Positions 5,755 through 60,962 of a DNA stretch of 64,000 bases are shown here, one piece after another (positions within the stretch are counted from its first letter, which is position 1; the number at the start of each line of letters is the position of its first letter). The notes under the pieces were generated by a model. That model searched no databases, was not told where the DNA came from, and was given only the letters and a program-made list of their open reading frames with translations. Position numbers and translations under genes: made by a program. Origin of the DNA: an uncultured Actinomycetes bacterium (GTDB taxonomy: Bacteria > Actinomycetota > Thermoleophilia > Gaiellales > Gaiellaceae); assembly GCA_963746765.1 (NCBI GenBank), contig CAVVCN010000002.1, positions 139,362 to 203,361 of the forward strand, read 5' to 3'.

Positions 5755-6863
5755 GCCAGGACGAGCTCAACGCCTTCATCACCCGGGTCGAGCCGGAGAG
5801 CGAGCGGCGGCCGGGGCCGCTGTCGGGGCGGACGCTGGGGGTCAAGGATCTCTTCGACACCGCCGGGATCCGCACGACGTACGGCTCCGGCATCTATGCG
5901 GACCACGTACCCGAGCGGACCGCGGTCGCCGCCCAGCGCCTGCTCGACGCGGGCGCAGTGCTCATCGGGAAGACGCATCTGCCCGAGTTCGCGTGGGGTG
6001 TGCTGGGCCAGAACCCGTGGTTCGGGACGTGCGAGAACCCGACGTATCCGGGGAAGACGACCGGCGGCTCCTCGAGCGGCTCGGCGGCCGCGCTCGCCGG
6101 GGGCCTCTGCGAGCTCGCGCTCGGATCGGACACGGGCTGCTCCGTCAGGCTTCCCTCGGCCGCGTGCGAGGTGGTGGGGCTGAAGTCGGAGTGGGGGTTG
6201 ATCCCGATGGACGGCGCCTTCCCGCTCGTGCCGCTCCTGGACAGTGCCGGCCCGATGGCGCGCACCGTCTCGGACGTGGCGGTCATGTGGTCGGTCCTCG
6301 CACAGCAGCCGGTGCCGGATCCGAGGCTGGACGGGCTCACGGTCGGCCTCATGCGGCAGCCGCCGGGCATCGGCGACGGCCGCGCCACGGAGACGAGCGA
6401 CGCTGCGGAGGAGTGGGTCTCGGACCTCGAGCGTCTCGGCGCGCGCGTCGTCGAGGCCTCGGTCCCGGATCCGGAGGCGAATACGTGGCCGCAGTTCCAG
6501 CACGAGGCGGTGCAGTCGCACGCAGCGACGTTCCCGATGAGGAGCGGCGAGTACGGCGAGGTGATGCGGAAGAAGCTCGAGTCCGCCCAGCGCGCCAACC
6601 CCGACGACGTCGTCGCGGCGTACCGCGCGATCGAGCGGTGGCGCCGCTACGAGCTCGACGTCGACCTCTACGTCAGCCCGTGCTACGCGATCGAGCTGCC
6701 GGATCAGGATGCGGACGAGCTCGAGGTGCGGCTCCCGCTCACGTCGTTCCTGCGCTGGGTGAACATCGTCGGCTGGGCCGGCCTCGCGATCGGGAACATG
6801 CAGCTGATCGCGCCGCGGGACGAGGTCGTGCTCGCGGCCGGGCTCGCCTGGGAGCGCGGCTAG
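5751..6863 (+). CDS. amidase (amidase-signature family, short form)
   Basis: ATGA overlap. VKDLFDTAG (catalytic Lys region) and GGSSSGSAAALA...GSDTGCSVRLPSA signature. Confidence 0.85.
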   Translation: MSQDELNAFITRVEPESERRPGPLSGRTLGVKDLFDTAGIRTTYGSGIYADHVPERTAVAAQRLLDAGAVLIGKTHLPEFAWGVLGQNPWFGTCENPTYPGKTTGGSSSGSAAALAGGLCELALGSDTGCSVRLPSAACEVVGLKSEWGLIPMDGAFPLVPLLDSAGPMARTVSDVAVMWSVLAQQPVPDPRLDGLTVGLMRQPPGIGDGRATETSDAAEEWVSDLERLGARVVEASVPDPEANTWPQFQHEAVQSHAATFPMRSGEYGEVMRKKLESAQRANPDDVVAAYRAIERWRRYELDVDLYVSPCYAIELPDQDADELEVRLPLTSFLRWVNIVGWAGLAIGNMQLIAPRDEVVLAAGLAWERG

Positions 6864-6914
6864 ACGGCGAGCGAGGCGGGACGATCGGCGGCGCGGAAGG
6901 TAGCGTCTCGTCCG

Positions 6915-7679
6915 GTGAAGGTCGTGGTCGCAGCAGCCATCGTCGTCCCGCTGCTCGCCGCCGGGCTCGCGTCCGGGTGCGGCGGAGACGACGACGCGGC
7001 CGACCCGCCGACGCTCGAGAACGTGCCGTGGGTGCTGACGTCCGGCGTGGACGTCGAGGGCTGGGAGGCGGTGGCTCCGGGCATCCGCTTCGGCCCCTCG
7101 AGGTTCGGCGGCTCGACCGGCTGCAACCGGTACGGCGGCTCGTACACCGTCGACGGCGACATGCTCGATCTCGGCGAGATCGCAGCGACGCTCATCGCCT
7201 GCCCGCCGCCGGCCGATGCCGTCGAGCGGGCCTACCTCGCGGCGCTCGAGCGCGTCGCCCGCTGGAGCGTCGACGACGACGAGCTCACGCTCCTCGACGC
7301 CGACGAGGCCGAGGTGCTCCTCTTCGTCGCGGCGACACCGTCGGGCGAGTGGGAAGTGACGGCGTTTGCGCGCGACACCGGCGTGACGTCGCCGATCGTC
7401 GGCACGGAGCTCACGGCGTCGTTCGAGGGCGGGCGGCTGACCGGGTCGGCCGGCTGCAACACGTACACGACGTCGTACACGCTCGATGGCGAGGCGATCG
7501 CGATCGAGCCCGCCGCCGCTACCCGCAAGCTCTGCCCGGGTCCACCCGGCGTGATGGAGCAGGAGACCGCGTACCTGGCGGCGCTCACCGAGGCGGCTCG
7601 CTTCGGCGTCGTCGGTGGCTCGCTCGAGCTACAGCGCGAAGACGGCACGATCGTCGCCACGTTCGCCCGCCCGACCTAG
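6915..7679 (+). CDS. lipoprotein with two META (HslJ-like) domains
   Basis: GTG start; lipobox LASGC followed by GGDDD. Two copies of the META pattern: STGCNRYGGSYTVDG...IACP and SAGCNTYTTSYTLDG...KLCP. Confidence 0.7.
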   Translation: MKVVVAAAIVVPLLAAGLASGCGGDDDAADPPTLENVPWVLTSGVDVEGWEAVAPGIRFGPSRFGGSTGCNRYGGSYTVDGDMLDLGEIAATLIACPPPADAVERAYLAALERVARWSVDDDELTLLDADEAEVLLFVAATPSGEWEVTAFARDTGVTSPIVGTELTASFEGGRLTGSAGCNTYTTSYTLDGEAIAIEPAAATRKLCPGPPGVMEQETAYLAALTEAARFGVVGGSLELQREDGTIVATFARPT

Positions 7680-35962: not shown

Positions 35963-36172
35963 CTAGCTCGCCGGAGGCATCTCGTCGACCGGCCACGGCT
36001 TTCCGCCGAGCCCCCAGTTCTTCGGGTTGTGGCCTTCGACGATGACCCACGTGTGGTCCCGCAGCCCGGGATGGGTCGCCTCGCAGAGCGCGTCGGTGAG
36101 CTTCTCGATGAGTGCGGCGCTCGTCTCGTCGTTCATCCGGTAGTCGAAGAGCTCGACCCTGATCAGCGGCAT
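35963..36172 (-). CDS. 4-oxalocrotonate tautomerase family protein (paralogue with C-terminal extension)
   Basis: ATG 36172 with RBS AAGGAGG. 69 aa, begins MPLIRVELF. The 680-aa ORF upstream of this start is shadow. Confidence 0.8.
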   Translation of the reverse strand: MPLIRVELFDYRMNDETSAALIEKLTDALCEATHPGLRDHTWVIVEGHNPKNWGLGGKPWPVDEMPPAS

Positions 36173-36214
36173 GCTCGCCTCCTTCGTCGGTGGCGCGACG
36201 TTACGGTAGGTCGC

Positions 36215-36655
36215 ATGGCGATGCGCCTCCAGCACGTCGGACTCGTCGTCGCCGACGTCGAGCGGTCGCGTCGCTTCTACCGCGAGGCGCTCGGGGTCGA
36301 GGAGGTGCCGCGTCCGTCGAACTTCAGGTTCGAAGGCGCGTGGTTCCGCTTCGGCGGCACCGAGATCCACCTGCTCGCGGAGGCGGACACGACGGGCGGG
36401 GCAGGGCAAGGAGACGCGGGGCTCGGTATCGCACGTGGGCTGACCCGGCACCTGGCCTTCGAGGTCGACGACCTCTCGGGTGCATGCGAGCGGCTCGCGG
36501 CGAGCGGCGTCGCGCTCGACGGCGGCCCGATGCCGAGAGGGGACGGGGTCGTGCAAGTGTTCTTCCGAGACCCGGACGGCTACGTCCTCGAGCTGTTCCA
36601 GTGGACGGACGAGGACCAGAGCGACGCGCCCGAACGGCGCCCGGTCGCGAGCTAG
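36215..36655 (+). CDS. VOC family protein (glyoxalase/bleomycin resistance/dioxygenase fold)
   Basis: ATG 36215. LQHVGLVVADVERSRRFY...HLAFEVDD...VFFRDPDGYVLEL. Confidence 0.8.
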   Translation: MAMRLQHVGLVVADVERSRRFYREALGVEEVPRPSNFRFEGAWFRFGGTEIHLLAEADTTGGAGQGDAGLGIARGLTRHLAFEVDDLSGACERLAASGVALDGGPMPRGDGVVQVFFRDPDGYVLELFQWTDEDQSDAPERRPVAS

Positions 36656-38001
36656 CGGCCGAGAGAACCGAGCGCGCGGTACGTCTCGCGCGCAGCGGCG
36701 ACGCCGAGCGGGAAGGTCTCTACGAGCATGCGCTCGTTGGGCGAGTGGGTGTGGCTGTCGGGGAGCGCGAGCCCGGCCATCACGGTCGGGATCTCGCGTC
36801 GCGCGAGTGCGGCGAGGATCGGCAGCGTCCCACCGGCACGCACGACGAGCGGCTCCCGTCCGAAGACGCCCGCGAACGCCCTGCGTCCGAGTCGGAGCGC
36901 GTCCGTGTCGCGCGGAAGTGTCGCGGGCTGCGTCAGGTCGGCGCTCACCTCGAGCGTCGCTCCAGCCGGCAGCGCCTCTCGGAGCAGGCGCTCCGCCGCA
37001 GCCGCGACTTCCTCCGCGTCCTGGCCCGGTGCGACGCGGATCGTCACCCCTGCGGAGGCGTGTGAAACGAGCGTCGTGTTCCGCAGGCCGGGCTTGCCGC
37101 CGAGGATGCCCGTGACGTCGATGGACGGCTCGACGAACGCCCGGACGTAGAACTCCTCGGCTGCACGCTCGTCGAGCGGCACGGCGCCGACCCGGGCGAG
37201 CTCCTCGGCGCCGGGAGGCAGCTGCGACCAGCCGGCGAGCTCGTCCTCGCCCGGCTGCGTGACGCCTGCCCGGAGCGGCTCCGGGAGGCGGCCGTTCGCC
37301 GGGAAGAGCGCGGTCAGAGCCTGCGCGAGCGCGTGGATCGCATTCAGAGCGGTGCCGCCGTAGTGGCCGGAGTGGAGATCGCGGTCGCCGGTCCGCAGGT
37401 CGAGGTCGAGCGCGACGAGGCCGCGGGTGGCGACGATCAGCTCGGGCGTGTTCCGGCGCTTCATCCAGCCGTCGAGGATCACGCAGGCGTCGATCGCCTC
37501 CTGGTCCTCGGCAAGGAACCGTGAGATCGCGTCGCCGCCCGTCTCCTCCTCGCCGTCGCAGACGATCCGGAAGCTCACGGGCAGCTCGCCCGCGCCCACG
37601 AGCGACGCGATCGCCTCGAGCTGCATCCAGAGCTGGCCCTTGTCGTCGGCGACGCCTCTCGCGTAGAGCCACTCGCCGCGCACCTCGGCCGCGAACGGAT
37701 CGCTGTCCCAGAGCTCGAGCGGATCCGGCGGCTGAACGTCGTAGTGCCCGTAGACGAGCACGGTCGATGCTCCCGCCGGCCCTTCGATCCTGCCGACGTG
37801 CAGCCGGCCGCCCTCGCGCACGTCTGCCTCGCCGCCGAGCGCGCGCACCTTCTCCGCGACCCACTCGGCGGCGCGCGTGACCTCGGGCGCGTGCGCGGGA
37901 TCCGCGCTCACGCTCGGGATCGCGAGAAAGGAGGAGAGCTCCTCGAGCCAGCCGGGTCGCAGCGGGTCCGCCGTGGCCATCGCGTGCCAGCGTATCGGCA
38001 C
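36652..38001 (-). CDS. M20 family metallopeptidase (dipeptidase-like)
   Basis: YGHYDVQP, RGVADDKG, CDGEEETGG. The start is GTG 38001 or ATG 37980. Confidence 0.85.
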   Translation of the reverse strand: MPIRWHAMATADPLRPGWLEELSSFLAIPSVSADPAHAPEVTRAAEWVAEKVRALGGEADVREGGRLHVGRIEGPAGASTVLVYGHYDVQPPDPLELWDSDPFAAEVRGEWLYARGVADDKGQLWMQLEAIASLVGAGELPVSFRIVCDGEEETGGDAISRFLAEDQEAIDACVILDGWMKRRNTPELIVATRGLVALDLDLRTGDRDLHSGHYGGTALNAIHALAQALTALFPANGRLPEPLRAGVTQPGEDELAGWSQLPPGAEELARVGAVPLDERAAEEFYVRAFVEPSIDVTGILGGKPGLRNTTLVSHASAGVTIRVAPGQDAEEVAAAAERLLREALPAGATLEVSADLTQPATLPRDTDALRLGRRAFAGVFGREPLVVRAGGTLPILAALARREIPTVMAGLALPDSHTHSPNERMLVETFPLGVAAARETYRALGSLGR

Positions 38002-38098
38002 TCACACGAGACTCTTAGTCCGCTATCAGCGCCTCCTTAGGAGCCCCCGGTTCACTCGACGAATGATGATCAGCGACGAACGAAGGAGGTGAAGTCCG

Positions 38099-38341
38099 AT
38101 GGACGAGGCGAAGAGCAGAACCGGTCTGCGCGCCGCGCTCGGCTTACTCGTGGTCGTCGTCGCCGTGGCGACCTTCTGGGTCACGTCGGCTTTCGCTGCC
38201 GACAACTCGGCGGCGAACGACCGGGGCCCGAGCTCGAGCCCGGCGGCCGCGTACGTGCAGAACGACGGGAACGACGACGCGGCCCCCGATCGCAACTGCC
38301 CGGAGCGCGACGGCGACTCCGAGCAGAGCTCCGACGTGTGA
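38099..38341 (+). CDS. small secreted, highly acidic protein
   Basis: Strong RBS GAAGGAGGTGAAG 6 nt upstream. Signal peptide ...LLVVVVAVATFWVTSAFA/ADNS. The roughly 45-aa mature part is rich in D/N/S with one Cys. High GC3. Confidence 0.6.
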   Translation: MDEAKSRTGLRAALGLLVVVVAVATFWVTSAFAADNSAANDRGPSSSPAAAYVQNDGNDDAAPDRNCPERDGDSEQSSDV

Positions 38342-38477
38342 CGTCGGACTGAGGCCGGTACCCCGGACGTCGGCGTGGAGGCCAACGACGACATCGGGGT
38401 GCCGGTTCTTTCAGTCGCGTGCGAATCACTCGTTCGCGGTCGCCGCCCTTCGCGAAGATCCCGATAACGGGAGGGCC

Positions 38478-40142
38478 GTGAAGTCCCTCCTCTTCGGCCC
38501 GCGCCGTTCCGCGGGCGCAGGCTCGCCGTCGCTCGGCAGCGTCGAGGCCGCGCTCGCCCCGGCCTTCGCGGACGGCCGCTGGCTCGTCCCGTCGCGGTTC
38601 AACTTCACGCGTGACGTCGTCGAGGCGCTCGCGCAGGACCGGTCGCGACGGGCGCTGACCTACCTCGGCCACGACGTCGTGATCGAGCCGCGCACGTTCT
38701 CGCAGCTCGCGCTCGGCGCGGCGCACTGGGCGACGCTCTTGCGCGAGGCGGGGGTCCGCCCCGGCGACCGTGTTCTCGTGCTCGTGGGCGCAACCCCGGA
38801 GTGGGTCGAGATCATGCTGGGCGCGATCAAGGTCGGCGCGGTCGCGGTGCCGTCGAGCGAGCGGCTTACGGCATCGGCTCTCGACATCCGGCTCGCCGCC
38901 TCCGGCGCCAAGGTCGCCGTCGCCTCGCGGCGCGCGACGATCGAGCTCGGCTCGTGCTCGCGCTCCCCGACGGTCATCCCGGTGGACACGGCGGCCAGGG
39001 AGGCGCAGCGCTTGCCGAAGGAGGCCCCGACCCACGACACCGGAGCGCGCGATCCCGCCTTCATCCTCTCGACGACCGGCCGCACGAACGGGCCACGCGG
39101 CGTTCTCCACACGCATGCGTCGGCATTCGCGGCGCGCGTCCAGGCCGAGCACTGGCTGGACGCGGGCCTCGGCGACGTCGTCTGGTGCACGTCGCCGACC
39201 GACTCGCCGCAGGCGCTCTGGGGCACGCTGCTCGGGCCGTGGGCACGAGGCGCCTCGGTCGTTCTCCACGACCGCGTCTTCGATCCCGCCGAGCGGCTCG
39301 ACCTGCTCGGCCGCCTCGGCGTCACGGTCCTGTGTCAGACGCCGGCCGAGTACCGGGCGCTCGCCGAGACGGGGCGGCTCGCGCGTCATCGCTGGGCGCG
39401 GCCACGGCGGCTCGTCTCCACCGGCGATGAGCTCCCGGACGACCTCGTCCAGCTGTTCGAGGACGAGTGGGGGCTCACCATCCAGGACGGCTACTCGCAG
39501 GCGGAGGCCGGCGTCGTCATCGGTCACCGGAGCGAGGACGTCCCGCGCGGATCGCTCGGGCGGCCCCTGCCCGGCTACGACGTGGGCGTCATCGACGAAT
39601 GCGGCGACGAGGTCCCGGCAGGCTGCGAGGGTGCGCTCGCGCTCCGCGGGAGCCCGCCGTCCCTCTTCGCCGGGTACTGGAACGCGCCGGACGCGACGAA
39701 CGCCGCATATCGCGGCGACTGGTTCGTGACGGGGGATGCGGGCGTGCGCGACGAGGACGGGTTCCTCTGGCTCACCGGGCGACACGAGCCCTCGCCGCGG
39801 CCTGTAGCCGCGCCCGTCCCCGAGCCGGCCCTCGTCGAGGAGCCGATCGTCGTCGCGAGCCCGCCCGCGCCGCAGGTCGAGCCCCCCGCACCGGCCCAGC
39901 CGCGCCGGGCCGAGCCTGCAGCGGCCCAGCCGGTGCCCGAGCCCGCGCCGGATCCCGCGGTCGAGGCGGAGCCGCCCGGACGACGTACCTCACGGATCCA
40001 CCGCCTCACACTCACCCTGTGGGTGCTCGCCGCCGGCGTCATGATCGGCGGCGTCGCGATCCCGCACGCCCAGGACCAGCCACGCGTGGTCCCGAGGAGC
40101 GAGGACGCGCCGAACGCGATCTGCCTCGCGCCTCGTCCCTAG
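38478..40142 (+). CDS. divergent adenylate-forming (ANL/AMP-binding) N-terminal domain protein with Pro-rich linker and C-terminal transmembrane anchor
   Basis: GTG start. ANL core present up to motifs A7/A8 (WFVTGDAGVRDEDGFLWLTGR), then PSPRPVAAPVPEP...Pro-rich segment and one hydrophobic helix LTLTLWVLAAGVMIGGVAI. No C-terminal ANL subdomain in any frame. Confidence 0.8.
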   Translation: MKSLLFGPRRSAGAGSPSLGSVEAALAPAFADGRWLVPSRFNFTRDVVEALAQDRSRRALTYLGHDVVIEPRTFSQLALGAAHWATLLREAGVRPGDRVLVLVGATPEWVEIMLGAIKVGAVAVPSSERLTASALDIRLAASGAKVAVASRRATIELGSCSRSPTVIPVDTAAREAQRLPKEAPTHDTGARDPAFILSTTGRTNGPRGVLHTHASAFAARVQAEHWLDAGLGDVVWCTSPTDSPQALWGTLLGPWARGASVVLHDRVFDPAERLDLLGRLGVTVLCQTPAEYRALAETGRLARHRWARPRRLVSTGDELPDDLVQLFEDEWGLTIQDGYSQAEAGVVIGHRSEDVPRGSLGRPLPGYDVGVIDECGDEVPAGCEGALALRGSPPSLFAGYWNAPDATNAAYRGDWFVTGDAGVRDEDGFLWLTGRHEPSPRPVAAPVPEPALVEEPIVVASPPAPQVEPPAPAQPRRAEPAAAQPVPEPAPDPAVEAEPPGRRTSRIHRLTLTLWVLAAGVMIGGVAIPHAQDQPRVVPRSEDAPNAICLAPRP

Positions 40143-40483
40143 ACGCGGCCACCCTCGAGCGGGAGGCCGGCGTCTCGCCAGTCCTGTTTCCCGCCCGAGT
40201 AGTGCAGCACGTTCCGGTACCCGAGCTCGACGAGCCGATCGCCGACCTCGCCGGAGCTCTCGCACGAGTGGTTCGCGCAGTAGACGACGACCTCCGTGTC
40301 GAGGTCGGGAATCCGCCTGGAAGCGAGATCGTCCACGCGGTCGGGCGGGATGTTGACCGCGCCCGGAAGGTGTGCGCCGGCGTAGGCCAGGGGCGGGAGC
40401 GCGTCCACGAGCACGAACGCCTCGCCGCGCTCGATCTTCTCCCGAAGGGCGTCGCGGTCGATCTCGACGAGCGCCGTCGTCAC
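40139..40483 (-). CDS. rhodanese-like domain protein
   Basis: 114 aa. VLVDALPPLAYAGAHLPGAVNIP...VVVYCANHSCESS...LGYRNVLHYSGGKQDW is a single rhodanese-domain pattern. Confidence 0.8.
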   Translation of the reverse strand: MTTALVEIDRDALREKIERGEAFVLVDALPPLAYAGAHLPGAVNIPPDRVDDLASRRIPDLDTEVVVYCANHSCESSGEVGDRLVELGYRNVLHYSGGKQDWRDAGLPLEGGRV

Positions 40484-40496
40484 GGCGGAAGTGTGC

Positions 40497-40985
40497 CTAC
40501 TGCGACGTGCCGAGCCCGACCGTGAACTCGCGCTCGCGTCCGCGCCAGCTCACGTGCAGCGACTCCGCGACCTTGCGCAGGAGCGAGACCGCCGCCGGGT
40601 TGTCGCCGCACACCGTGGCGACGAGCTCCGTGAACCCGGCCGCGCGGGCGTCGGCCGCCAGCTCGCCCGCAAGCGTCGAGCCGATCCCACGGCGCTGGTG
40701 CACGTCGGCGACCTCGAACGCGATCTCCGCGGCGGGACCGATCCTCACGAGCCGGGCCATGCCCGCGGGCTCGGGGTCTCCGGCCACGTACCCGACGAGG
40801 ACGTGGTGGTCGCCGTCGACGCGCGCGAGTGCCACCAGCTCCGGGTCGGAGAGCGACGGCTTCGCACCGCAGAAGCGCTGCTCCCGCGAGCGCTGACCGA
40901 GCCGCGCGAAGAGCGCGCCGACGGTCGCGACGTCGCCGTCCCGGAGCGTCCGGATGGTGACCCCGTTGACGTAGCGCGCCTGCAT
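40497..40985 (-). CDS. GNAT family N-acetyltransferase, Pat-type (protein lysine acetyltransferase-like) domain
   Basis: ATG 40985. SREQRF...LSDPELVALARVDGDHHVLVGYV...AEIAFEVADVHQRRGIGSTLAGELAADARAAGFTELVATV resembles the GNAT domain of Pat/PatZ-type enzymes. Confidence 0.7.
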   Translation of the reverse strand: MQARYVNGVTIRTLRDGDVATVGALFARLGQRSREQRFCGAKPSLSDPELVALARVDGDHHVLVGYVAGDPEPAGMARLVRIGPAAEIAFEVADVHQRRGIGSTLAGELAADARAAGFTELVATVCGDNPAAVSLLRKVAESLHVSWRGREREFTVGLGTSQ

Positions 40986-41040
40986 GGGTCGATGGTGCGC
41001 CCGGCGCGCAACGTGCGCTTCGCCACTGCGGGCCATCTTC

Positions 41041-41069
41041 TTGACATGGCCCGATCGGGCCACCACACT
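41041..41069 (+). promoter_or_regulatory. candidate promoter (TTGACA-N17-CACACT) with a perfect 14-bp palindrome in the spacer; would give a leaderless mRNA
   Basis: TTGACA 41041-41046; GGCCCGATCGGGCC 41048-41061 is a perfect palindrome; CACACT 41064-41069. The GTG/ATG start codons at 41075/41078 fall where the transcription start would be. Confidence 0.35.
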
Positions 41070-41074
41070 CACGG

Positions 41075-42106
41075 GTGATGTCGCAGACCGAGCAGGAGAT
41101 CCGCTTCTGCGAGCTCGACGGCCGTCGCATCGCCTACGCGACCGTCGGTGAAGGGCCACTGCTGCTCTTCGGTGGCCGCTGGGTCACACATCTCGAGGAG
41201 GAGTGGGCGGAGCCCGCGCCCCGGCGCTTCTTCGAGGAGCTCTCCCGGACGCATCGCGTCGTTCGGTACGACCGGCTCGGCACGGGGCTCTCGGACCGCA
41301 ACCTGCTCGACCCGCTGACGGCGGAGGCCGAGACCCGGATGCTGGCCGCCGTGCACGAGTCGGTCGGGGCCGACCCGGCGATCCTCTTCGCGTGCTCGTG
41401 CGCGGGGCTTGCGAGCACGCGCTACGCGGTCGAGTCCCCGGACCGGGTTCGGAAGATCGTCTACTACGGCGCCTACGCCGCGCGCGACGACATCCCGGAG
41501 GCGACCCGCCGCTCGCTCGTGGACTTCGTGCGCGTCAACTGGCAACTCGCGACGCAGATGCTCGCCGGGCTCTTCATGCCGCACGGAAGCGGCGACGAGA
41601 TCGCGGCGTTCAGCCGCTATCAACGCCACTCCGCGAACGCGGACGTCGCCGCCGCCTTCATGGAGCTCGACCTCGGCTCGGACGTGCGCGAGTTCCTGCC
41701 TCGGGTCACGATGCCCGCGCTCGTGCTCCACCGCCGCGGCGACTGCACGGTGCCGATCGGCCGCGGTCGCGAGCTCGCGGCGTTGCTCCCGAACGCGCGC
41801 TTCGTCGCGCTGAACGGAGACGCGCACCTGCCGTGGCTCGAGGACCAGCGCGAGGTCCAGCGGGCGCTCGCCGGCTTCCTCGAGGACGCCCCGGCGCTCG
41901 ACCCGAACGCCGACTCGCCGCTCTCGCGCCGCGAGACCGAGGTTCTCCGGCTCGTCGCGGCCGGGCTCTCCAATCGCGAGATCGCGTCCTCGCTCGTCCT
42001 GAGCGAGCACACGGTGCACCGGCACGTCGCGAACATCCTGCAGAAGCTCACCCAGTCCTCGCGGGCGGCCGCTGCGGCGCACGCGACGCGCGTCGGCCTG
42101 ATCTAG
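41075..42106 (+). CDS. LuxR family transcriptional regulator with N-terminal alpha/beta-hydrolase-fold domain
   Basis: C-terminal LSRRETEVLRLVAAGLSNREIASSLVLSEHTVHRHVANILQKL. The N-terminal roughly 270 aa has hydrolase topology with an AxSxA elbow (FACSCAG) and late D/H (NGDAHLPW). Confidence 0.8.
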   Translation: MMSQTEQEIRFCELDGRRIAYATVGEGPLLLFGGRWVTHLEEEWAEPAPRRFFEELSRTHRVVRYDRLGTGLSDRNLLDPLTAEAETRMLAAVHESVGADPAILFACSCAGLASTRYAVESPDRVRKIVYYGAYAARDDIPEATRRSLVDFVRVNWQLATQMLAGLFMPHGSGDEIAAFSRYQRHSANADVAAAFMELDLGSDVREFLPRVTMPALVLHRRGDCTVPIGRGRELAALLPNARFVALNGDAHLPWLEDQREVQRALAGFLEDAPALDPNADSPLSRRETEVLRLVAAGLSNREIASSLVLSEHTVHRHVANILQKLTQSSRAAAAAHATRVGLI

Positions 42107-58112: not shown

Positions 58113-60962
58113 CTACGCCGGGCCCGGCGCGTCGCCGGCAGCTTCATCGGCGGCGATGCTGTACGCGCTCAGCCGGCTCGAGAGGTCCTTGATGAAGTCC
58201 ACGTCCGGGTTCTCCATTCCCGGCTCGGGGGCGGACCGCTGCACGCCTGCCTGGGCGACCGCCGGCTCCGCGTGCTCCTTCTCCTTGCGGCGGCGGCGCC
58301 CGCGGCGCTTCGCCTCGCCGTTGGCGGGTGCGGGCGGCGCCGGAGCGGGCTTGCGCTTGCGCGCGACCTCGGGCTCCTTCGGCGGCTCCGGGTCAGGCTG
58401 CGGCGGAGCGGGCGGCTGCGGCGGAGGAGGCGTCGGCGCCGGTGGCGGCGGAGCGGGCGCGGGAGTCGGATCCGGGGCGGGAGGCGGTGCCGGCTCGGGC
58501 TCCGGGACGCGAGCGCGCGTCGGCACGGTCGGCTTCTTCGCAACCGGCTTCGGTGGAGCCTTCGACGCTGGCTTCGGCTTCGTGGGCGGTGGCTTCTGGG
58601 CGACCGGCGCAGGTGGTGGGGCCGCCGCGGGCCGGGGAGCAGGCTTGGCCGGCGCGGGCGGCGCAGCCTTCGGCACGGGCGGCGCCTTGGCGACGACCGG
58701 CTCGGGCACCGGCGGGGGTGGTGGCGGAGGCTTCGCGGCGGGCGCGGGCGGCGCAGTCGCCGTCACCGGCGGCTGCGGATCGCGGATCGGCCGCGTGCGC
58801 GGCTTCGGCTTCGGCTCGGCAGCGGCGGCAGGCATGGGCGCCGGCGCCGGGGTGCTCTCCGCCTTGACCTCGGCCTCGAGGTCGGCCTCGGCCGCAGGCG
58901 CACGACGCGACTCCGGCTCGGGTCCGGAGTCCGGCTCGGGCTTTGCTCCTCGCGCCTCCTGCAGGATCGGGACCGTGCGCGGCTCGGGCCGCGGCTCCGG
59001 CTTCGGCTCGGGCTCGATCGGGACCTCGGGGAGCGGCTGCGCGTTCAGGAACGAGACGACGTGCTCCGGCAGCGGCTCCGGGACGAGCTCCGGAACGACG
59101 ATGTAGTCCGGCAGCTCCTCGTCGTCGGGCTCGACGTCGAGGGCCGACCCCGCGTCCAGGTCGAGCGAGGCGGCGTAGGTCTCGGACGGATGCACGACGA
59201 AGTCGGGCAGTGGCTCTTCGTCCTCGACCGCGACGGCGGTCGGGCGGGGCGGCTCGGGCGGCGCCTCGAACGTCGTCACCGGCGCCGGGGTGCCGGGGAG
59301 CCGCGGCGCCTTCGACCAGGCGCCCTCGGTGGCGACGGCCGTGCGCTCGCGCAGCTCGTGGCGGAGGATCGTGCCGTTCGCCGCGGTCGGGAGCTCGTCC
59401 ACGAACTCGACCTCGCGCGGGACCATGTCCTCGGGCAGCGTGTGCCGCAGGTGCTGGCGGATCTCGGCGACGAGCCGATCGGAGGCCTCCGCCCCGGGCG
59501 CGAGCACGACGAACGCGCGGACGTACTGGCCGCCGCGCTGGAGGTCGCGCATGCCGACGACGCCGGCGTTCGCAACGGCCCGGTGCTCGACGAGTGCCTG
59601 CTCCACTTCGAAGGGCCCGAACCGGCGCCCGCCGCTCGTGATGACGTCCGCCGCGCGGCCGAGGAGGCGGACGGAGCCGTCCTCCTCGCGGCACGCGAGG
59701 TCGCCGGTCAGATAGAGGTCGCCGCGGAACACGGCCTTCGTCTCCTCGGGTGCGTCCCAGTACCCGGCGAAGAGCGTCGGCGGACGCCCGCGCAGCGCGA
59801 GCTGGCCCTCGCCTCCGGGCCCGATCTCGGCGCCACTCTCGTCGACGATCGCGATGTCATGTCCGGGAAGCGGTTGCCCGATCGAGCCGCTTTCCAACCC
59901 GTCGTCGGCGCCGTGCCCGATCACGAGCCCGGTCTCCGTCTGGCCCCAGCCGTCCTCGATGGGCATGCCCCACGCCTGCTCGAAGGTCGAGACGACGTCG
60001 GAGCTCAGGAAGTCGCCGGTCGACACCATGCGGCGCAGGCGGTCCGGCAGGTAGCGGCCGAGTGTCCGCTCGCCGGCATCGGTGAGCGCGCGGTACTCGG
60101 AGGGGCTCTGGCAGAGGATCGTGACCTCGAAGCGCCGGATGAGATCCAGCCGCTCCTCGGGGTCGAAGGCGCCCTCGTGGAGCACGACCTCGGCGCCCCG
60201 CGCCCAGGGGCCGAGGAGAAGGAGCCACACGGCGAGCGGCGATGCCGTGTCCGCCGTGCACCAGACGACGTCGCCGCGCCGCGCGTCGAGCCAGTGCTCG
60301 GCCTGCGCGCGGGCCGCGAACGCCGCGGCGTGCGTGTGCTCGACGCCATAGGGCGCGCCGCCGCCCGACGTCGTGAGCAGGAAGGCAAGGTCGCGCGAGG
60401 CGGTGTCGTGCGTCGGCTCCTCACCGGACATGCGCTGCAGGCGGTCGTGCACCTCGGCGGCGTCGAGGACGGCCGCACCGGCGACGGTCTCGAGCGAGGC
60501 GACAGCCGGGACGTGGTCGGCGACCACGAGCTTCGCGCCGGCGCCCGCGACGCGGATCTCGAGGGCGGCGCGCGAGATGGTGGGCGAGCACGGCACGGTC
60601 ACCGCGCCGACCTTCATCCCGGCGAGCATCACCTCGATCCAGCTCGGCGACTTGCCGATGACGACCACGACCCGGTCGCCGGGGCGCACGCCCTGCTCGC
60701 GGAGCCGGGCGGCCCAGGCGCCGGCACCCTCGGCGAGTCGGGTGAACGTCCACGGCTCGATCACGCCGTCCGCACCGAGGAACATCAGCGCACGGCGGCG
60801 CGTGTCGTCCGCGAGAGCCTCGACGACGTCTCGCGTGAAGTTGAAGCGGTCCGGAACACGCCAGCGACCGTCCACCCATGCGGGCTGGAGTGCAGCCTCC
60901 AGCGGCCCCAGGGGCGCCTGGGTAGCGGCTCGGCTGCGCCGGCCGAAGGACACAAGCTTCAC
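58113..60962 (-). CDS. divergent adenylate-forming (ANL/AMP-binding) enzyme with a roughly 430-aa proline-rich C-terminal extension
   Basis: GTG start. The first roughly 520 aa form a full two-domain ANL fold paralogous to 38478..40142. The remainder is Pro/Ala/Glu/Lys low complexity (PAPAPPPPAPTPPPPQPPAPP), a basic patch KRRGRRRRKEKEH and a short non-repetitive tail. GC3 supports this frame; the antisense Gly-rich ORFs are shadows. Confidence 0.8.
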   Translation of the reverse strand: MKLVSFGRRSRAATQAPLGPLEAALQPAWVDGRWRVPDRFNFTRDVVEALADDTRRRALMFLGADGVIEPWTFTRLAEGAGAWAARLREQGVRPGDRVVVVIGKSPSWIEVMLAGMKVGAVTVPCSPTISRAALEIRVAGAGAKLVVADHVPAVASLETVAGAAVLDAAEVHDRLQRMSGEEPTHDTASRDLAFLLTTSGGGAPYGVEHTHAAAFAARAQAEHWLDARRGDVVWCTADTASPLAVWLLLLGPWARGAEVVLHEGAFDPEERLDLIRRFEVTILCQSPSEYRALTDAGERTLGRYLPDRLRRMVSTGDFLSSDVVSTFEQAWGMPIEDGWGQTETGLVIGHGADDGLESGSIGQPLPGHDIAIVDESGAEIGPGGEGQLALRGRPPTLFAGYWDAPEETKAVFRGDLYLTGDLACREEDGSVRLLGRAADVITSGGRRFGPFEVEQALVEHRAVANAGVVGMRDLQRGGQYVRAFVVLAPGAEASDRLVAEIRQHLRHTLPEDMVPREVEFVDELPTAANGTILRHELRERTAVATEGAWSKAPRLPGTPAPVTTFEAPPEPPRPTAVAVEDEEPLPDFVVHPSETYAASLDLDAGSALDVEPDDEELPDYIVVPELVPEPLPEHVVSFLNAQPLPEVPIEPEPKPEPRPEPRTVPILQEARGAKPEPDSGPEPESRRAPAAEADLEAEVKAESTPAPAPMPAAAAEPKPKPRTRPIRDPQPPVTATAPPAPAAKPPPPPPPVPEPVVAKAPPVPKAAPPAPAKPAPRPAAAPPPAPVAQKPPPTKPKPASKAPPKPVAKKPTVPTRARVPEPEPAPPPAPDPTPAPAPPPPAPTPPPPQPPAPPQPDPEPPKEPEVARKRKPAPAPPAPANGEAKRRGRRRRKEKEHAEPAVAQAGVQRSAPEPGMENPDVDFIKDLSSRLSAYSIAADEAAGDAPGPA

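Follow-up and report, generated by a model that had tools for sequence, protein, structure and literature searches.

A conserved Gaiellales family of ANL N-terminal domains without the C-terminal subdomain, with a predicted membrane anchor and a derived phosphate loop

A 64,000-nt stretch of DNA from an uncultured Actinomycetes bacterium (Thermoleophilia; Gaiellales; Gaiellaceae) was analyzed (GCA_963746765.1, contig CAVVCN010000002.1, positions 139,362–203,361 of the forward strand). This whole stretch is hereafter called the window, and position 1 is its first letter. It contains a gene for a 554-residue protein of the ANL superfamily of adenylate-forming enzymes, in which the large N-terminal domain (N-domain) is followed by a linker, a predicted transmembrane (TM) helix, and a short tail. 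Domain alternation is classically illustrated by ANL enzymes, in which neither half-reaction is believed to proceed without the small C-terminal domain. The short-type gene in the window is real and kept by selection, and it belongs to a MACS-like ANL subfamily, specific to the Gaiellales, that has lost this C-terminal subdomain (C-subdomain). As judged from sequence, it adds to a well-known enzyme family a real architectural variant that had not been described, and the signs of function are clear. We tentatively propose, with somewhat less than even confidence, that the protein is an autonomous membrane-leashed module that would bind an adenine nucleotide together with a carboxylate or acyl-adenylate and serve in ligand binding or in adenylation only.

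Results

The ANL homology ends at the interdomain hinge

The short protein matches the whole AMP-binding profile of Pfam and no other family (PF00501; residues 53–401, profile positions 7–384 of 384, 183.6 bits against a cutoff of 29.9), which places it in the ANL superfamily by its N-domain. The profile of the C-subdomain, PF13193, gives no match in the 554-residue protein. Alignments to NCBIfam models and Protein Data Bank (PDB) entries start near residue 33 and all end at residues 435–438. This boundary agrees with a preliminary description of the locus, which had traced the N-domain through motifs A7 and A8 to the hinge. At that point, GFLWLTGR runs directly into HEPS (GR-HEPSPRP) where the canonical GRxDDxI is expected. 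In the AlphaFold2 (AF2) model, residues 21–435 have predicted local distance difference test (pLDDT) values above 90.

The best matches to residues 33–436 are enzymes of the MACS/AcsA group (E 3e-44), which includes ACSM2A (PDB IDs: 3c5e and 2wd9), M. acetivorans Macs (3etc), AcsA (9g79), and MbcS. The best fold matches in Foldseek are likewise the MACS, ACSM2A, and AcsA N-domains (3etc, 3c5e, and 9g79; query-normalized template modeling scores of 0.66–0.68). Shared features include the NF..DV start, WCT in A4, GQxE in A5, GYW in A6, TGD in A7, and GR in A8. In contrast to these enzymes, the short protein lacks the C-subdomain, the A10 Lys, the hinge Asp, and the CoA tunnel, carries a C-terminal linker and anchor, and belongs to a family with TxGRTNGPRG in the phosphate loop (P-loop) where theirs is TSG(S/T)TGxPKG. 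Its scores fall below the equivalog cutoffs of the full-length models, at 249.6 against 850 for the MbcS NCBIfam model (profile positions 7–418 of 525) and 195.6 against 729 for PRK04319.

A custom hidden Markov model of the C-subdomain, built from 61 long paralogues, was run with filters off (--max) against six-frame translations of the window and 88 fetched loci. This model recovers the full-length paralogue of the window at E=5e-55, and it finds nothing in any frame of 38070–40139 or in the 11 orthologous loci. The only matches in the window and the loci fall inside complete long paralogues, and thus no separate C-subdomain gene of the kind that a split ANL enzyme would need was detected there. 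The earlier reading that no frame encodes the C-subdomain is thereby borne out. Because this subdomain is absent, so is the catalytic A10 Lys, and residues 436–554 contain no Lys at all. The protein had also been called half of an adenylate-forming enzyme, which understates its extent: about 80% of an ANL enzyme is retained.

The N-terminus, MKSLLFGPRRSAGAG, has no hydrophobic core when read from the sequence and is unlike a Tat or Sec signal. Its extreme end, MK(S/L)xxFGxRR(S)xxA (residues 1–30, 38478–38567), is invariant in both the short and the long families and is disordered in the AF2 model (pLDDT <50). This peptide could be a short linear motif for a partner.

The short family is conserved across independent assemblies

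Protein searches retrieved about 50 clusters of the same architecture, with lengths of 530–610 residues, PF00501 as the only family, and 51–78% identity over the full length. These homologues come from ENA, NCBI, JGI, and Logan assemblies, which are independent and were made with several assemblers. The species-representative relatives are all metagenome-assembled genomes (MAGs), labeled Gaiellaceae, Gaiellales, Thermoleophilia, or Actinomycetes. The Pro-rich linker and TM tail are kept in 39 of the listed homologues (51–78% identity), so the possibility that the tail is unique to this assembly fails. In an alignment of 20 sequences, the N-domain is conserved through DGFLWLxGR. Pairwise ratios of nonsynonymous to synonymous substitution rates (dN/dS) are 0.15–0.22 for the N-domain, 0.1–0.58 for the TM helix and tail, and 0.2–1.0 for the linker. 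All three parts of the gene have a G+C content at third codon positions (GC3) of 0.85–0.92.

These observations bear on whether the gene is a pseudogene, a product of a sequencing frameshift, or one part of a split enzyme, each of which we consider very improbable. Frameshifts do occur in this material: many of the related MAGs are nanopore-assembled, and real frameshifts split a short-type gene in locus L008 (~6001–7630) and a long paralogue in locus L011 (6001–8846). However, the architecture recurs in independent assemblies, the dN/dS values indicate purifying selection, and the tail is conserved in frame, which argues that the short type is no artefact and agrees with the earlier judgment that no simple frameshift is involved. 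A split enzyme is contradicted by the lack of a C-subdomain in any frame or separate ORF of the window and the 11 orthologous loci. As a separate caution, database proteins that carry only PF00501 and look truncated (e.g., P0047) can be frameshift artefacts.

A "bare" variant of the short type is also present. The gene at L088 6001–7359 encodes 452 residues and stops 17 residues after the GR of the hinge, with no linker or TM helix. Its P-loop and its upstream element (see below) are those of the anchored forms, and the next gene encodes a DUF1996 protein. At least eight protein clusters appear to be of this bare type (P0032, P0033, P0037, P0038, P0042, P0044, P0049, and P0050). Since this subgroup keeps the P-loop and the upstream element without an anchor, the N-domain appears to be autonomous.

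The short family arose within a clade of long paralogues

The nearest full-length relatives of the short protein have 800–970 residues and consist of ANL N- and C-domains, a P/A/E-rich intrinsically disordered region (IDR) of about 400 residues, and a C-terminal W(M)xGLSxRLSAYSL motif. A neighbor-joining tree of N-domains places the short members in a single monophyletic group inside this long clade, which is thus its evolutionary parent. The two families share N-domains of 48–62% identity with near-identical site-wise constraints, an N-terminal MK..FG.RR peptide, and a P/A/E-rich disordered region. In contrast to the short proteins, the long paralogues keep the C-subdomain, have no TM helix, end their IDR in the W(M)xGLSxRLSAYSL motif, and have degenerate P-loops. 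An amphipathic membrane-targeting helix in this C-terminal motif is unsupported (hydrophobic moment of 0.10–0.27).

The long paralogue of the window, P0107, is present where the preliminary description had placed it, with the correction that it lies on the minus strand. Its P-loop, TTSGGGAPYG, contains no Lys or Arg, and its A10 motif, NGTILR, has Thr in place of Lys, so that this protein itself looks catalytically compromised. The Pro-rich IDR of about 400 residues ends in a conserved peptide, DFIKDLSSRLSAYSI, and the IDR-coding portion of the gene contains imperfect 18-nt tandem repeats (58396–58499).

Outgroup loci L071, L073, L076, L078, and L081 encode relatives of Thermoleophilia type that combine fully canonical catalytic motifs with C-terminal extensions of 190–570 residues, and a related short motif closes each extension (NPALVARLQAYR, NPALIARLRAYG, or DIVERLQRYS). 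A design with a tail and a terminal peptide therefore predates the loss of the catalytic motifs.

The short family is most constrained in its derived P-loop

Catalytic motifs were compared among 55 short members, 85 long members, and five outgroup sequences. No motif of the short family is under stronger constraint than the derived P-loop, whose changes do not look like decay. It is a near-invariant T-x-G-R-T-N-G-P-R-G, with a mean entropy of 0.55 bits versus 1.48 bits in the long members. Thr199, Gly201, Gly205, Pro206, and Arg207 are invariant, Arg202 is found in 51 of the 55 sequences, and Asn204 is found in 52. The P-loop of the window protein had been noted as altered. The substitutions are real: relative to TSGSTGTPKG, TTGRTNGPRG shows K to R, S to R, and G to N changes. 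However, the loop aligns without gaps at the canonical length and is near-invariant in the family, which makes decay an unlikely reading.

In the long clade, the P-loops are degenerate (e.g., TSGAASGPRG, SAGASGGPHL, and TSGAGGGPYG), and the A10 Lys has been lost repeatedly (NGT, SGN, SGS, SGM, and RGR), the paralogue in the window included. The five outgroup sequences have a canonical YTSGTTxDPKG P-loop and the A10 Lys (SGKIRR).

The Mg2+ and ribose ligands are kept in the short family, with Glu343 of A5 and Asp420 of A7 each present in 54 of 55 members and Arg435 of A8 in 50. The surrounding Thr418-Gly419-Asp420 of A7 is conserved as well. Relative to the long clade, only four N-domain positions have lost constraint, His264, Phe268, Arg392, and Lys408, and these are plausibly former contacts to the C-subdomain. 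Position 340 is Gly in 50 of the 55 short members. Acetate-specific Acs has Trp at what we take to be the same pocket position, and a Gly there would be compatible with acids larger than acetate.

The C-terminal region contains a disordered linker and a widespread anchor module

The linker comprises 70 residues (436–505), about 20 fewer than the preliminary description had counted, and has a Pro content of 31%, the same share as in the IDR of the long paralogue. In the homologues, 60–140 residues follow DGFLWLxGR; they are Pro-rich, variable in both length and sequence, and cannot be aligned. The mean pLDDT of the linker is ~45–52 in the AF2 model, in which residues 437–503 are disordered. As described earlier, the linker is followed by one TM helix and a short tail. 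AF2 places a helix at residues 506–524, the highest-scoring Kyte–Doolittle 19-mer spans residues 510–528 (2.14), and the tail comprises residues 529–554. A positively charged stretch, RRTSRIHR, directly precedes the TM helix. Based on this stretch and the lack of an N-terminal signal peptide, the ANL domain is predicted to be cytoplasmic and the 26-residue tail to be outside.

The last ~55 residues are strongly conserved in the 20-sequence alignment (R..T..W.L..G..IGGxAIPHAxDxPRVVPxSEDxPNAIC), and Arg509, Trp515, Gly520, Gly524, Gly525, Ala527–Ala531, Pro535, Arg536, Ile548, and Cys549 are invariant. A 57-residue profile of the TM helix and tail, searched against 1.84 billion representatives, matches 53 proteins (50% identity clusters), most of which are not ANL proteins. 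In a word-indexed search with the same region, 345 clustered proteins carry it behind other N-termini. Most frequent among the carriers are "hypothetical proteins" of the Gaiellaceae with 105–121 residues. In these small carriers (P0202, P0268, P0294, and others), a SPELALVDPELxARARAALPD peptide is followed by a Pro-rich linker and a virtually identical TM helix and tail. Such genes were located at L085 8001–8351, L086 8001–8333, and L087 5778–6110, near rsgA and, in L085, directly downstream of it. Other carriers of the TM motif combine a coiled or charged N-terminus with an 80-residue extracellular beta domain (P0148, P0153, and P0164) or have a Cys-rich ectodomain (P0145, P0146, and P0167).

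The small Gaiellaceae proteins thus share with the short ANL protein a nearly identical Pro-rich linker and the PLWARVTAALWLLVLGILIGGAAIPHAQDxPRVVPxxED..C module. The two differ in the cytoplasmic part, which is the 25-residue SPELALVDPELxARARAALPD region in the former and the ANL domain in the latter. That the TM helix and tail are common to many small non-ANL membrane proteins of the Gaiellaceae suggests that the short ANL protein is a fusion of the N-domain of the lineage's ANL paralogue with a pre-existing anchor module. No Pfam or NCBIfam model matches the linker, TM helix, and tail or the stand-alone carriers, including those for LPXTG, PEP-CTERM, GlyGly-CTERM, and anti-sigma-type anchors. 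Together with the lack of a PADLOC match, this result led us to reject an assignment of the tail or the stand-alone carriers to any known sorting signal or described family.

The W..LG..IGGxAIPHAxDxPR motif recurs on no fewer than four unrelated parts, cytoplasmic or extracellular, which implies a common partner or process. One reading is regulated release, in which the anchor, with its Gly-Gly, Pro, and His at the outer end, would be the substrate of, or docking site for, a membrane protease or complex, and a signal would free the ANL domain. The helix-breaking Gly-Gly and the Pro near the outer face would fit such a role. However, no linked protease or partner gene was found at the examined loci, the known sorting-signal and anti-sigma families give no match, and the argument is by analogy only; we regard this reading as improbable.

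A conserved element precedes the short-type ANL gene

An alignment of the 160 nt upstream of 10 short-type genes reveals two invariant boxes at a fixed distance from the GTG start (Table 1), with box 2 following box 1 by 25–26 nt. This bipartite pattern is present in 11 of 11 short-type loci (L001–L008, L010, L013, and L088) and in none of the other 77 of the 88 fetched loci. Each box occurs once in the window. A scan of metagenome contigs with a variable-gap form of the pattern gave mostly chance matches, and among the matches listed only L175 is a true short-type locus. The element sits between the ANL gene and a small ORF upstream, and it travels with the ANL gene across differing contexts.

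Based on its position and conservation, the element is probably a family-specific promoter or operator, and it possibly gives a near-leaderless transcript. A riboswitch or structured leader was rejected, with no Rfam match and four invariant pairs without covariation in RNAalifold. A conserved upstream ORF was rejected as well, since spacings of 44 and 45 nt break the frame between loci. In the interval from the small ORF to the ANL gene, a consensus scan found neither a sigma-70 promoter nor an intrinsic terminator.

A small acidic protein is encoded upstream in one subclade

The small ORF encodes a protein of 80 residues and has a GC3 of 0.91, the same as the ANL gene. Residues 1–34, as read from the sequence, resemble the n-, h-, and c-regions of a signal peptide and end in TSAFA/AD. 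The remaining part has 46 residues, is acidic and rich in Asp, Asn, and Ser, and contains one Cys (NCPERDG). Its orthologues share VTSAFAAD, AAYVQN.G, and CP(D/E)R.G..EQSSD. No Pfam, NCBIfam, or PADLOC family matches the small ORF. The small-ORF family contains six protein clusters. In five of them the length of the longest contig (318655, 99146, 26472, 680750, and 134771) agrees with that recorded for a group-1 short ANL protein; the length for the sixth (380785) matches none of the listed short-ANL contigs.

Only members of the closest subclade (the window, L001/L005, L006, and L008) have the small ORF ahead of the ANL gene. It is absent at L002/L013, L003, L007, and L010, where the upstream neighbor is a divergent pdxS, at L004, where the ANL gene lies between two tautomerase genes, and at L088. 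In contrast, the Cys of the ANL tail is invariant whether or not the small ORF is present, and it also occurs in the stand-alone module proteins. Since the small ORF is missing in other subclades that keep this Cys, the pairing does not define a two-gene system. The small ORF is a real but lineage-restricted neighbor of the ANL gene and does not encode an obligatory partner. The preliminary description had highlighted the tiny secreted protein and its pairing with the ANL gene. What stands is a real gene with a GGAGG sequence, a signal-like start, and a single Cys. Co-occurrence across the family and the notion of the pair as a system do not hold.

A two-gene system would make the small secreted protein the partner or substrate of the tethered enzyme, for example through a single Cys at the outer face. 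The strong ribosome-binding site (RBS) and GC3 of the small gene, its conservation directly upstream in the window, L005, L006, and L008, and one conserved Cys in each protein, both predicted to be extracytoplasmic, would be consistent with this. Nevertheless, we think it has little chance of being correct in view of the loci that lack the small ORF, the hundreds of stand-alone proteins that carry the Cys-bearing tail without it, and the conserved element of the ANL gene, which separates the two genes. An interaction between the small protein and the ANL protein that is specific to the subclade is possible.

Genomic context

The G+C content of the window is ~71% throughout. The small ORF and the ANL gene lie on the same strand, and opposite-strand genes flank the pair on both sides (Table 1). 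The ANL and rhodanese genes are convergent, and their 3′ ends share 4 nt (40139–40142); no terminator-like hairpin was detected across 37800–40600. Further downstream, an alpha/beta-hydrolase carries a C-terminal LuxR/GerE DNA-binding domain, an unusual enzyme–regulator fusion. This gene adjoins the GNAT and rhodanese genes in all subclade-1 neighborhoods, and syntenic genes are present in L001, L004, and L088. None of the four proteins searched against the anti-phage defense models of PADLOC (short ANL protein, small-ORF product, rhodanese, and GNAT) gives a match. A function based on an operon was rejected, as the neighbors vary from one subclade to another and most of them lie on the other strand.

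Table 1 Features of the short-type ANL locus and its surroundings in the window.
Feature	Position	Strand	Basis or remark
Glyoxalase	36029–36655	+	ORF call and annotation
M20 peptidase	36652–38001	−	ORF call and Pfam
RBS of small ORF, GGAGG	38085–38089	+	Read from sequence; 9 nt before the ATG at 38099
Small ORF, 80 residues	38099–38341	+	ORF call
Box 1 of upstream element, (G/A)ATCAC(T/C)CGTTC..CG.TC	38425–38443	+	Alignment of 10 loci
Box 2 of upstream element, CCCGATAAC	38460–38468	+	9 nt before the GTG start
Short-type ANL gene, 554 residues, GTG start	38478–40142	+	ORF call and profiles
ANL N-terminal (Acore) domain, residues 20–436, MACS/ACSM2A-like fold	38535–39785	+	PF00501, AF2, and Foldseek
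Derived P-loop (A3), STTGRTNGPRG	39069–39101	+	Motif alignment
A5 motif, GYSQAEAG	39489–39512	+	Motif alignment
A7 (WFVTGD) to start of A8 (DGFLWLTGR), hinge Arg435	39720–39782	+	End of ANL homology
Disordered Pro/Ala/Glu-rich linker, residues 436–505	39783–39992	+	AF2 and alignment
Predicted TM helix, residues 506–528, LTLTLWVLAAGVMIGGVAI	39993–40061	+	AF2, Kyte–Doolittle, and conservation
Tail, residues 529–554, PHAQDQPRVVPRSEDAPNAICLAPRP, and stop codon	40062–40142	+	Conservation
Rhodanese	40139–40483	−	ORF call and Pfam
GNAT	40497–41159	−	ORF call and annotation
Alpha/beta-hydrolase–LuxR fusion	41075–42106	+	ORF call and annotation
Full-length long paralogue P0107, 949 residues	58113–60962	−	N- and C-terminal ANL domains

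Discussion

Canonical two-step acyl-CoA ligation should be impossible for the short protein, which has neither the A10 Lys nor a pantetheine tunnel and cannot undergo domain alternation. In the canonical ANL mechanism, the Lys of A10 is essential, as reviewed in the literature, and M. tuberculosis FadD5 without its C-domain (residues 1–448) was reported to be fully inactive, although it still dimerizes. The earlier view that the protein cannot be a standard acyl-CoA synthetase is therefore upheld, and the database label "acyl-CoA synthetase" for such genes is almost certainly wrong.

In the membrane-leashed module proposed above, a flexible leash of ~70 residues would hold the N-domain within reach of the membrane; a domain on so flexible a leash is unlikely to be fixed at the bilayer surface. 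Binding of an adenine nucleotide is suggested by the P-loop, the most constrained motif, and by the retention of Glu343, Asp420, and Arg435. Its partner ligand would be a carboxylate or an acyl-adenylate. Alone near the membrane, the N-domain would then act either as a ligand-binding module or as an adenylation-only enzyme, and in the latter case the fixed Arg202 and Arg207 of the P-loop would compensate for the missing A10 Lys. The constrained P-loop, the kept ligands, and the bare variants together point to an N-domain function that involves the phosphate loop, rather than to a decaying remnant or an inert spacer.

Several known systems resemble parts of this architecture. Laboratory N-domain constructs (FadD5 1–448, PqsA 5oe3-6, and FadD13 3t5b) have the same boundary at the A8 hinge and fold alone, and the N-domain of PqsA was crystallized with acyl-AMP bound. 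In contrast to those engineered or proteolytic forms, the short protein is natural, conserved across a clade, under selection, and equipped with a derived P-loop. FAALs, which are adenylation-only, are complete two-domain enzymes in which an insertion in the N-domain blocks the thioester conformation, whereas the short protein lacks the C-domain and has its best matches among MACS/ACSM enzymes, not FAALs. The eukaryotic FATP2 and the peripheral FadD13 and FadD5 likewise present an ANL domain at the cytoplasmic face of the membrane, where fatty-acid uptake or extraction is reported to be coupled to activation. These proteins are complete and bind the membrane directly or, in FATPs, through an N-terminal anchor, whereas the anchor of the short protein is C-terminal and joined to the domain by a 70-residue leash. 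A literature search of incomplete coverage found no report of a natural, conserved, membrane-anchored ANL family that consists of the N-domain only, and searches on ANL pseudoenzymes and on Gaiellales acyl-CoA synthetases found no precedent.

Several observations weigh against a nucleotide-binding or adenylating module. The canonical Thr of A5 is Ala in the short family, as it is in many long members. The motifs of the closest long paralogues are decaying, with degenerate P-loops and losses of the A10 Lys that extend to the copy in the window, and the whole clade may have left catalysis. A dN/dS of ~0.2 indicates moderate constraint only. The FadD5 N-domain, the one characterized relative with a reported activity result, is inactive, and retained catalysis would thus need compensation. 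In addition, the gene neighborhoods vary by subclade and therefore indicate no pathway.

The main alternative is a non-catalytic scaffold or regulator, which we consider unlikely but far from negligible. The anchored N-domain would pair with itself or with the long paralogue through the N-domain dimer interface, so that the paralogue would be tethered or regulated at the membrane and ligand binding would be irrelevant or allosteric only. The short and long genes lie 18–26 kb apart on the same contig in the window (18 kb), L005/L016, L006/L014, and L004/L027, and every checkable genome with a short-type gene also has a long one. The almost identical N-domain constraints of the two families, the N-domain dimers of relatives (AcsA, 9g79, and even FadD5 1–448), and the lack of a P-loop Lys or Arg and of the A10 Lys in P0107 are also in line with this role. 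In contrast, a scaffold leaves unexplained why motif conservation in the short family peaks at the phosphate loop, and it does not account for the bare forms, which lack an anchor. The upstream element is absent from all 77 long loci, so the two genes also differ upstream.

A stronger form of the adenylation-only case is a natural ANL enzyme that works without a C-domain. Here, Arg202 and Arg207 would replace the A10 Lys, acyl-adenylates would be made at the membrane, and a lipid, a protein, a small molecule, or some other acceptor that is not CoA would receive the acyl group. We judge this to be improbable; if true, it would define a minimal adenylating enzyme that breaks the rule of domain alternation.

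For the proposed membrane-leashed module and for the alternatives alike, the family provides a naturally occurring N-domain-only clade under purifying selection, with anchored and free forms, a redesigned P-loop, and its own upstream element. In addition, the work exposes an undescribed transmembrane and juxtamembrane module that is common to several Gaiellales protein families. The Gaiellales are abundant soil actinobacteria, and the sequences analyzed here come nearly all from MAGs; the N-domain of 436 residues is a concrete, clonable target. Either the large ANL domain is useful alone, in binding, sensing, or compensated adenylation, or ANL domains have been recruited in this lineage as non-catalytic modules.

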